Both the position numbers and the translations under genes were made by a program. A stretch of DNA of 64,000 bases, taken from positions 2,848,001 through 2,912,000 of the forward strand of contig CAWIAD010000002.1 of assembly GCA_963833985.1 (NCBI GenBank), read 5' to 3'. Below are positions 6,333 to 8,306 of the stretch, piece after piece. Under the pieces are notes generated by a model, which was not told the origin of the DNA, ran no database searches, and saw nothing but the letters and a program-made list of their open reading frames with translations. Position 1 is the stretch's first letter. Each line of letters opens with the position of its first letter. Source of the DNA: an uncultured Planctomycetaceae bacterium (GTDB taxonomy: Bacteria > Planctomycetota > Planctomycetia > Isosphaerales > Isosphaeraceae).

Positions 6333-7606
6333 TCAATCAAGGCTCAGGAGCGGCTCGACGAGCCCGTCGGTCGTGAACCGGCCAACCAGCCACCGCGCAC
6401 TGGTCTGGTAACCCAGGAACGATCTCGAGGCGGGTGCGCCAGGCTGCGATAGATCACGAGCGTATCTTCACGTCCCCAGCTCACGCGCACCGCAAAGGCG
6501 GTGTCGGGGGCACAGACGCGGGACTGCTGGGCAACGGTGAGCACCCTCCAGTTTGGCGGCCTGCGGCAGCGCCTGGGATCCCAGGTGAGCAGGAGCGGCA
6601 TCCAGAGCTTTCGTCCTTGCGCCATGGCGGCGAGCGACAGGCGAGTCCCGTCATCGGCCGCGCGAAGGTGGCCGCGGTCGGTGTCGTAGGGCGCGGCCGG
6701 CAAGGCGAGCGGGAGCGCCTGGGCTTTCACGCGGCCCCGGGCGGAGCGCAAGAGCATTCCGCGACAGTTTTCAAGGCGCTCGGCCGTGATTCCGGGCGGA
6801 AGACAGAACTCGGTATGGCAGAGGGTTCCGGCGAGCGTTCCGGCCTCGGCCTGGACGGCCAGCAGCGCCGTCTTGCGGCCGCGGAAGAGTACGGCAAGCT
6901 GTCGGAGCCGCAAAGCGCCGGAGCGGTAAGACCATTCCAGGCAATCGGCGGCCGAGCTGGTCACCCACGTTCCCGGCCGCGCTGCTGTGGTGAGTGCGTC
7001 CAGGCCGGGCTGCCGCCATTCCGGGCCGAGCCAGGAACAGCCCGCGCCCACCAGCTCCAGCCGGGTCTGGGCCGTTGTGCCGCGATGATCGACGACCAGC
7101 AGGTCGTCGTCCTTCTTCCAGCCTCCGCGCAGTACCGCCAGCACGCGGCGCTGGCACGACCAGGCCGGCAAGGGAGGTGGAACGACCTTGCGGCTCTGGC
7201 GTCCCAGCCACCAGCCGAGCACGCGCCCTTCGGCGGCCCGAGAATGGCGATCGAAAAGCTCGGCAAAAAGAGCCCGGTGATCCGCATCCCTGGTGCCACC
7301 GTCAAGGTCGGTGGCGATGGAGCCTGCGGGCCTGGAGAAACGCAAGGCAGCGCGCAGCAGGCCGAGCACGCGCTCCTCGACGGGCTGTGGCCAGCCCGGG
7401 CGGCTGCGTGCGGCGCGCATCAAGGCGGCAACACAGTCCCACCATTCAAGGAGGTCCAGGCGGACCGGAACGCCGTCGGCGTCCAGCTCCCGGCCCAACC
7501 ATCGAACCAGCTTCGTCGCGTCGCGCTGGTGAATCCAGTGGTCGACCGCCGCGGCCAGTGCATCGAGCGCCGGTGAAGCGGCGCGAACTGCGGGTTGCGT
7601 CGTCAA
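6333..7606 (-). CDS. Conserved-looking hypothetical protein (possible heparinase II/III-like beta-rich C-terminus); frameshift near 6432
   Basis: Likely TTG start at 7606 after AGGAG; after YRSLA a shifted frame gives SRSFLGYQTSARWLVGRFTTDGLVEPLLSLD-stop, a more protein-like end than the listed ORF. Confidence 0.55.
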
Positions 7607-7971
7607 TCCGGGAAGACTCCTGATCACGGCGCGGACGGAGAGCCGCCTGAAGGAACGGGCGCCCGGGTCCGGAGCACCAGGGGCGTCTCGAGGCCAGTCA
7701 AGAGTAATGGATCCGCGGCCCGATCCCCAGTGGCCAGGCAGGAAGAACGTGGGAGTGCCCAGGTCACCCTCCCTCTGTCTGCTGGATTCTTGGGCGGCCG
7801 TGCACACGAAAGTGACTCGGGTTTTTCGCGGCGTGGAGAGCGCGCGATATTCCGCGAGCCGGGATGCGCTCAGAGCCCTCGACGTAACTCCCGATCGCCT
7901 CTCGCAGTCCGGCAGCGGCACGAGAGCGGGCCGGGGGAGAATCGATTTGTCTCAAGTTCGGAGAAAGTCTC

Positions 7972-7987
7972 TGGCATTGTGTTTGCT
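7972..7987 (+). promoter_or_regulatory. Sigma-54 (-24/-12) promoter
   Basis: TGGCAT-TGTGT-TTGCT versus consensus TGGCAC-N5-TTGCW; GG 7973-74, GC 7985-86; intergenic. Confidence 0.7.
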
Positions 7988-7997
7988 CTATACCCTG

Positions 7998-8306
7998 ACG
8001 TGACCTGGAAGAGAAGAAGAAAACAAAGGCTGCACGAGACATACGCAGCCAGGTAGCTCAGGCAGAGCTTCATCTTACAAGCAGCCACCCCACTGGCGAC
8101 GGTCGTTCTGCTCCGGTAGAACGGCTCCCCCGCCAAAGGGCGAGCGGGACGCCTCGCACGACCCCCCGCTCGCCCTTTCTCGAACAATGGTTGAGCTCGA
8201 AGCAAGGCTTCTGGAGTTCCCATCCCGCTAACCGGCCAGTTGATTTCGTACCGTACGACTAAGGGAGAGGTAGTCGTACGATACGGAGTCTCTGGCCGGT
8301 TTTTTT
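7998..8306 (+). ncRNA. Putative structured small RNA, family not recognised
   Basis: Lies between the sigma-54 site and a U-tract terminator; consecutive hairpins at 8028-8050, 8055-8069, 8102-8125 (cUCCGg loop), 8135-8178 (14-bp stem) and 8230-8301; G-U pairs favour the + strand; no credible ORF with RBS. Confidence 0.55.
8230..8306 (+). terminator. Long hairpin with U7 tract (intrinsic terminator-like)
   Basis: AACCGGCCAG 8230-8239 pairs with CTGGCCGGTT 8292-8301; inner stem CGTACGACTA/TAGTCGTACG; T run 8300-8306. Confidence 0.65.

Follow-up and report, generated by a model that had tools for sequence, protein, structure and literature searches.

Two genes on the minus strand enclose a gap that seems to contain a transcription unit of its own on the plus strand. 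The gap lies in a 64,000-nt stretch of DNA (the window) from an uncultured Planctomycetaceae bacterium of the Isosphaeraceae. What would such a unit encode, under which control would it stand, and on what would its product act? The original prediction had proposed a sigma-54-driven, highly structured RNA of about 310 nt that was undescribed and possibly a protein sponge.

Architecture, strand and identity of the element

The unit was complete as described, with a sigma-54 box, a chain of hairpins and a closing U7 between minus-strand ORFs on either side. The downstream ORF encodes a BD-FAE esterase; the upstream ORF (6344-7806, minus strand) is without Pfam match and adjoins the RNA in 6/29 other loci. 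The -24/-12 promoter was located at 7972..7987 (+), with a predicted +1 near 7998. From there to the end of the U-tract (8300..8306, +), which is the predicted 3' end, the element would measure ~309 nt. An RNA contig of a relative stops 8 letters beyond 8306.

The first part of the predicted transcript (7998..8084, +), which includes a purine-rich tract, is conserved neither in length nor in sequence. The Isosphaeraceae core as defined from alignments includes CCACCCC (8085..8091, +), a conserved single-stranded C-rich motif. Hairpin P1 (8094..8135, +) has a near-invariant base of 4-5 bp and an inner hairpin of free sequence, in which 7 of the 8 pairs show compensatory change. In this genome the inner part is an 11-bp hairpin with a C-UCCG-G loop (8101-8126), enclosed by TGGCG/CGCCA (8094-8135). 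P2 (8135..8178, +), a perfect 14-bp stem here, is family-specific and near-invariant: 9/12 pairs are without any variation among the aligned homologues, and the 11-nt loop (8151-8161) is invariant. A spacer hairpin of free sequence, P3 (8187..8223, +), follows and is usually repeated together with the rod in multi-rod arrays. The rod itself, P4 (8230..8301, +), has 29 bp, is conserved as a module beyond the family and covaries in 8/8 upper pairs; the stem of the terminator is at the same time its base. The hairpin chain had thus been drawn correctly for the 14-bp stem and the rod of about 30 bp, and for the UCCG hairpin except for its length, which had been given as 10 bp.

Folding energy alone gave no strand, because the z values were similar for the plus (-5.5) and the minus strand (-5.8). 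The plus strand was assigned from the excess of G-U over A-C in aligned pairs (125 versus 20 cells, plus strand), a bias already seen in the original prediction, and the orientation of promoter and U-tract agrees with it. Among 29 aligned homologues, compensatory changes were found in 26/46 pairs, and 0/500 shuffles matched the observed values. A small ORF within the element was rejected on account of 1-nt indels within the core.

Searches with the Rfam 15 covariance models at gathering threshold gave no match to the element, nor to 14 diverse loci. That it is none of tmRNA, RNase P or SRP RNA had been claimed before and agrees with the finding of all three elsewhere in this genome, where a 6S-like RNA was also detected, only below its cut-off. 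With one copy in the genome the element is not a dispersed repeat. It is a conserved RNA gene without an Rfam family or a description in the literature searched, and its promoter and covarying homologues bear out the earlier view of an undescribed planctomycete sigma-54-driven RNA.

A small share of the stretch was contained in 23 RNA-labelled sequencing runs. Contigs of relatives covered the conserved part in 4/4 such runs examined, and 11/12 records lay inside 8085-8306; as these contigs give no strand, ends or level and a DNA control was lacking, the metatranscriptomes provide a weak hint.

Distribution, predicted sigma-54 promoter and NtrC-type enhancer

BLAST detected homologues in 34/36 Isosphaeraceae genomes, and the pattern matches included Paludisphaera soli and Tundrisphaera lichenicola of the same family. 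Model R1, which describes the P1/P2 core, matched 21/24 Isosphaeraceae genomes and 0/76 other genomes of the class; the P2 pattern was absent from 400 other genomes of the phylum that were searched and had 0 matches in phage sequences. By these matches the P1/P2 core is an addition peculiar to the Isosphaeraceae. Model R3 reached further, with matches in families f1 (24/24), f5 (18/22), f7 (1/2), f9 (1/1) and f114 (1/1), and in none of f3 (0/14) and f4 (0/23). The class search was filtered and missed at least three true f5 copies; therefore the 0/37 in f3 and f4 means 'not found'. After inspection plus a laxer search, copies with a sigma-54 site were recorded in 19/22 f5 genomes.

Several groups of matches were discarded on inspection. 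Among the non-seed R3 matches 5/18 were due to chance, including the sole one in f113; 4/20 of the weak R2 matches inspected were plain terminators, and rod-pattern matches in phage were chance in 4/4 cases. Of the GTDB pattern loci, 24/80 lacked a strong R1 match and were mostly non-planctomycete. A metagenome scan gave mostly chance matches, with promoter plus hairpin in 5/120.

In the other Planctomycetia families it is a stand-alone sigma-54 gene, reduced to promoter and U-tract with a short leader and one or two hairpins between them. Genome G464 contains a tandem array of four of these genes, every one preceded by a promoter. Eleven short-form f5 genes (L185-L187, L191, L227-L229, L238, L242, L547, L548) have the conserved 5' leader word GGCGAGAG in common, located where transcription is predicted to begin. 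Neighbouring genes vary among the loci; in a scan of 72 neighbour ORFs, amtB adjoined the RNA in 3 cases and a nitrite/sulfite reductase gene in 1.

A sigma-54 site was found upstream of 93/94 distinct core-bearing loci, at variable distance, and upstream of 13/18 non-seed hairpin matches, compared with a background of 2% per 200 nt. When palindromes were counted upstream of the short-form loci, TGC-N11-GCA emerged in 13/17. In the window the corresponding predicted enhancer, a TGC-N11-GCR palindrome at 7780..7796, lies 192 nt upstream of the -24 box, with NtrC-type spacing; it shares nucleotides with the start of the minus-strand ORF on that side (6344-7806). Enhancer matrix scores exceeded 9 in 74/84 loci and 1-4 in shuffles, an in-sample comparison as the matrix was trained on the same regions. 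The sites cluster 115-205 nt upstream of the -24 box, often in pairs, a spacing that we take to be that of NtrC. Between enhancer and promoter there is a further conserved word (7881..7889, +), ~90 nt upstream of the -24 box; about a dozen of the 67 long-form loci have it at the same place (-89 to -94), and it may be part of a site for a DNA-bending protein. The predicted promoter, the enhancer motif, the structure and the loop are conserved.

In this genome the enhancer motif, together with a sigma-54-like box, was also found upstream of amtB (divergent from a P-II gene) and of nifA, and in other families upstream of amtB or glnA type III (glnA III). Since the RNA shares its palindromic site with the amtB and nifA upstream regions, control is likely to be of NtrC type, with a probable induction under nitrogen shortage and a putative activator. 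The best candidate for this NtrC (G000:C2:2605071-2606534) had ntrC as its top model, with a score of 434.6 against a cut-off of 558.6, and the genome contains 17 matches to sigma-54 activators, i.e. 16 besides this one. Chaperone promoters gave weak scores for the enhancer motif. The motif would outline an NtrC-type regulon for the class.

Further sites of this kind were seen outside the window. In the nif cluster (G000:C1 ~3116000-3136400), which has the enhancer upstream of nifA, nifD and nifA exceeded their NCBIfam cut-offs and the other genes were recognized by eye. A small unannotated gene for a 120-aa protein and the ORF following it (L258, G000:C1:849852-850214, minus) stand behind an enhancer and a sigma-54-like site. 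A degenerate tandem repeat at G000:C2 ~2520900-2521170 contains several sigma-54-like matches.

The rod loop and its predicted target

The loop of the rod, N-GGGAGAG-G (8262..8270, +), is the predicted pairing seed. It was invariant in 32/32 aligned rods, which had been chosen by this loop, and likewise in 29/29 rods found through the P2 core. Across 32 diverse rods 16/18 pairs covaried while the loop remained unchanged; the seed itself never covaries. The original prediction had singled out AGGGA in this last loop. The choice of loop was right. Its A is replaceable (U, A, G or C, with U commonest) and GGGAGAGG is not, a pattern more in keeping with a pairing seed than with a site for CsrA. 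The protein sponge that had been envisaged from the A-rich tract was not borne out and is less likely, because neither the tract nor the UCCG loop is conserved: a tract with 19 of 20 purines is unique among 30 sequences (13-17 in the others), and the UCCG loop occurred in 1/29 homologues. Moreover, Hfq gave no match in this genome (G000, 96% complete).

The number of rods per RNA ranges from 1 to 7. A single rod was present in 78/94 loci, and rods were missing from a few paralogues. In multi-rod arrays the copies are usually accompanied by a spacer hairpin, and of the U-tracts the longest stands behind the final rod. The rodless paralogues (L019/L043, L046, L077, L082, L107) consist of promoter and P1/P2 core only and are second copies in some genomes; several are located directly upstream of a gene on the same strand, in L019 one for a CitMHS transporter. 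Another variant, L184 (G454:C1:3822382-3822815), has two tandem P1/P2 cores followed by one rod, with P2 stems altered on both sides and the loop kept.

Complements of the rod loop occur at -150 to +30 in about 1% of the genes of this genome (76 sites, 7735 rough gene calls), including amtB and nifD, whose leader contains two of them. A further complement is located at about -170 of glnA III. The gene at G000:C1:1247905-1248997 (minus) matched glutamine synthetase in two pieces in different frames, reflecting a frameshift or an assembly error.

A test of glnA III leaders, fixed beforehand from the leaders of this genome, was applied to positions -330 to -25 and covered 60 of 73 genomes in which glnA III was matched; G000, G453, G491, G507, G048, G054, G510, G489, G505, G483, G459, G495 and G493 were left out. 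CCTCTCC or CTCTCCC was present in the leaders of 24/34 RNA-bearing genomes (f1 11/18, f5 13/16) and of 0/25 genomes in which the RNA was not found, a contrast for which Fisher p values overstate the significance, because essentially two families are compared with several and the f5 sites probably go back to one inherited event. For equal lengths the background was 2.5-5%; permutations of the words were found in 2/34 and 6/25 leaders, respectively. Among all 7-mers, the two words separated RNA-bearing from RNA-negative leaders best. The one leader left over, that of G050, contained a CU site although the genome had no R3 match; as this site predicted, a laxer search then revealed an RNA gene with promoter and enhancer.

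The reverse distribution was seen for sigma-54 sites at glnA III itself (score >8), which were detected in 17/25 RNA-negative but only 2/34 RNA-positive genomes. Both exceptions belong to genus g16 and are without CU site. In the leaders tested, the CU site is confined to RNA-bearing lineages and alternates near-exclusively with a predicted direct sigma-54 promoter.

The position of the site differed between the two main families. In 11/17 f5 leaders its start follows a TATAA box at a distance of exactly 9 nt, at the predicted 5' end; in 14/17 it precedes the start codon by 90-127 nt, off the ribosome site. Duplexes of f5 rods with their own leaders were calculated at -30.8 versus -29.2 kcal/mol for mismatched combinations (permutation p 0.016, n=12, with kin that are not independent). 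In f1 the position varies, and matched pairs were no better than mismatched ones (p 0.83). RNAcofold leaves the rod closed, kissing interactions being outside its model. When 9 leaders were folded, the f5 CU site did not consistently pair with the ribosome site of glnA III.

Leaders of amtB had the site in 7/20 versus 2/20 cases (40 hand-picked of 150 listed). No glnA III match was obtained in three RNA-bearing f1 genomes or in the f7, f9 and f114 carriers, so that other targets must exist. Genome-wide duplex scans of start regions with the loops of rod and P2 and with a second small RNA (see below) revealed nothing clear on the rough gene calls, and a partner of the P2 loop was not found.

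Taken together, the element is a gene for a ~309-nt small RNA that is probably activated by sigma-54 and an NtrC-type protein under nitrogen shortage, its rod loop being predicted to pair with the glnA III leader and likely raising expression. Under nitrogen limitation the NtrC-type protein would become active and allow sigma-54 transcription of the RNA. The exposed 7-nt rod loop would then pair with CU-rich leader sites independently of Hfq, and this pairing would raise glnA III, perhaps also nifD or amtB. Such loop-initiated pairing without Hfq, and its positive sign, are what we infer. The sign is suggested by the lineages without a detected RNA, which place sigma-54 directly at glnA III, and by the f5 site at the predicted +1, away from the ribosome site. 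Shielding of the mRNA 5' end from decay appears to be the likeliest route, and a refolding that opens the leader the second likeliest; against the former, RNase J was not found in this genome. Extra rods may add pairing sites or may be cut into separate units.

More tentatively, and with somewhat less confidence than an even chance would imply, several families could have replaced direct activation of glnA III by sigma-54 and NtrC with an RNA relay. An Hfq-free RNA made under NtrC would clamp the first nucleotides of a sigma-70 transcript with its Shine-Dalgarno-like loop, between 1 and 7 rods or 1 and 4 genes setting the dose; a co-induced target-mimic small RNA would provide the balance in Isosphaeraceae.

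The candidate RNA thus comes with promoter, activator site, seed and target, all of them predicted. If the reading is true, the RNA would activate without Hfq and be conserved in several families, and in bacteria that abound in soil and peat, transcriptional and post-transcriptional control of the central nitrogen-assimilation enzyme would clearly have been swapped in the course of evolution.

Known systems and alternative readings

No planctomycete small regulatory RNA or nitrogen-control circuit was found described in the literature searched, which comprised few subscription papers and no supplements. Planctomycete sigma-54 regulons are treated in PMC12316311, the accessible part of which does not mention small RNAs.

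Judged from sequence features, the best reading is an RNA that resembles NrsZ and activates glutamine synthetase by pairing, without Hfq. According to the accessible part of PMC4253122, NrsZ of Pseudomonas depends on NtrB/C and RpoN, and the present RNA has an RpoN-type promoter and predicted NtrC-type control. NrsZ is described there as stem-loops repeated with spacer hairpins between them, in 1-6 copies depending on the species, compared with 1-7 rods here, and the proposed activation of an mRNA through loop-initiated leader pairing is the same as proposed here. The RNA is not a member of that family, as far as this source defines it, since the NrsZ loop motif ACAGGCAG is replaced by GGGAGAGG. 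The short NrsZ modules further contrast with rods of 20-30 bp, and the NrsZ target rhlA with the predicted glnA III; the present RNA belongs to another phylum, in a genome in which no Hfq was found, has the additional P1/P2 core and showed no sequence likeness to NrsZ as given there. A functional parallel is provided by sRNA154 of Methanosarcina mazei, which, in the available portion of PMC9170634, is nitrogen-linked and acts on the stability of glnA and nif mRNAs. That RNA is archaeal and not sigma-54-driven, activates glnA1 and inhibits glnA2, and homology to the present RNA is not shown by what is accessible of this source.

Other known RNAs share single features. Qrr, CrcZ and GlmY are small RNAs transcribed by sigma-54, sometimes from several paralogous copies, and depend on or sequester Hfq or RapZ. 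The present RNA is unlike them in that no Hfq was found in its genome and the A-rich tract is not conserved, and the hallmarks of a CrcZ-type Hfq sponge were not seen. Alphaproteobacterial RNAs of the Cuckoo/NfeR1 type have tandem hairpins with one invariant loop, in repeated modules or tandem genes, and their loops expose C-rich, repressing anti-Shine-Dalgarno motifs, of which the G-rich loop studied here is the mirror image.

A comparison with CsrB/RsmZ leads to the strongest competing explanation, namely that the rods titrate one or more CsrA paralogues, so that nitrogen limitation would relieve CsrA repression. As in CsrB/RsmZ (PMC4005645, accessible part), GGA is located in hairpin loops, modules are multiplied (here up to 7 rods) and CsrA is abundant in the host. 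CsrA matches were found in 101/101 genomes of the class, 2-17 in each, and the 10 paralogues in this genome, one of them adjoining fliW, keep this explanation among the rivals. At ribosome sites of this genome GGGAGA is frequent (176 genes versus 51 in coding sequence), and the accessible text of PMC12316311 reports an enrichment of sigma-54 promoters at Planctomycetia csrA genes. Two of the csrA matches in this genome have sigma-54-like sites upstream. However, the A of the CsrA motif A(N)GGAX, as defined in the part of PMC4005645 at hand, varies, whereas positions that CsrA leaves unconstrained are invariant; most of the RNAs offer one site (one rod in 78/94 loci), the RNA of the window has only 5 GGA, the rods are long and covarying, and no Rfam match was obtained. 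In addition, f3 and f4 are rich in CsrA copies yet without RNA match, and a CsrA sponge would not account for the complement of the loop in leaders of glnA III. We therefore regard titration of CsrA as unlikely, though deserving a place beside the pairing activator.

The pairing could also occur as proposed and repress or destabilise glnA III and other mRNAs, or the inducer could be a signal other than nitrogen. The sign of regulation is not readable from the sequence, and the 17 sigma-54 activator matches and the weak enhancer scores at chaperone promoters would leave room for another signal. Against repression stand the f5 site, far away from the ribosome site, and the sigma-54 and enhancer sites at glnA III of RNA-negative lineages, which imply induction in the same condition. 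We give this variant a small chance.

An improbable alternative is that the rods mainly pair with, and act as a sponge of, another small RNA under shared control, in which a UUCUCCCU seed is invariant. Such an RNA (L257) was noticed outside the window, at G000:C2 ~525480-525617 (minus, ~137 nt); it is itself undescribed and has a sigma-54 promoter and the same enhancer. It is among only 3/168 promoters sharing this enhancer, its ~65-nt core is 87-100% identical in 31/45 Isosphaeraceae genomes, with an invariant UUCUCCCUGG seed before the terminator, 20/20 loci have a sigma-54 site, and 7-8 nt are complementary to the rod loop. In rod-rich f5, on the other hand, it was not above control (2/41; 6/61 versus 6 in the control, with narrow patterns), and pairing beyond the seed was no better than in a flipped-stem control (-17.8 versus -18.7). 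The second RNA may instead be a decoy of the rods or a repressor of ribosome sites on its own. Rfam gave nothing at threshold for it; likeness to SorX, suhB and Pxr was sub-threshold.

Finally, a cis-acting leader, terminator or DNA element in place of a free RNA is very improbable: in L156 and L253 the element does immediately precede an amtB gene of the same strand, and the P2 stem is nearly invariant, as expected of a DNA site, but the next gene in the window is on the opposite strand, neighbours vary, with the upstream gene common to only 6/29 loci, the compensatory changes and the G-U bias indicate RNA, and the four tandem genes of G464 have a promoter each.
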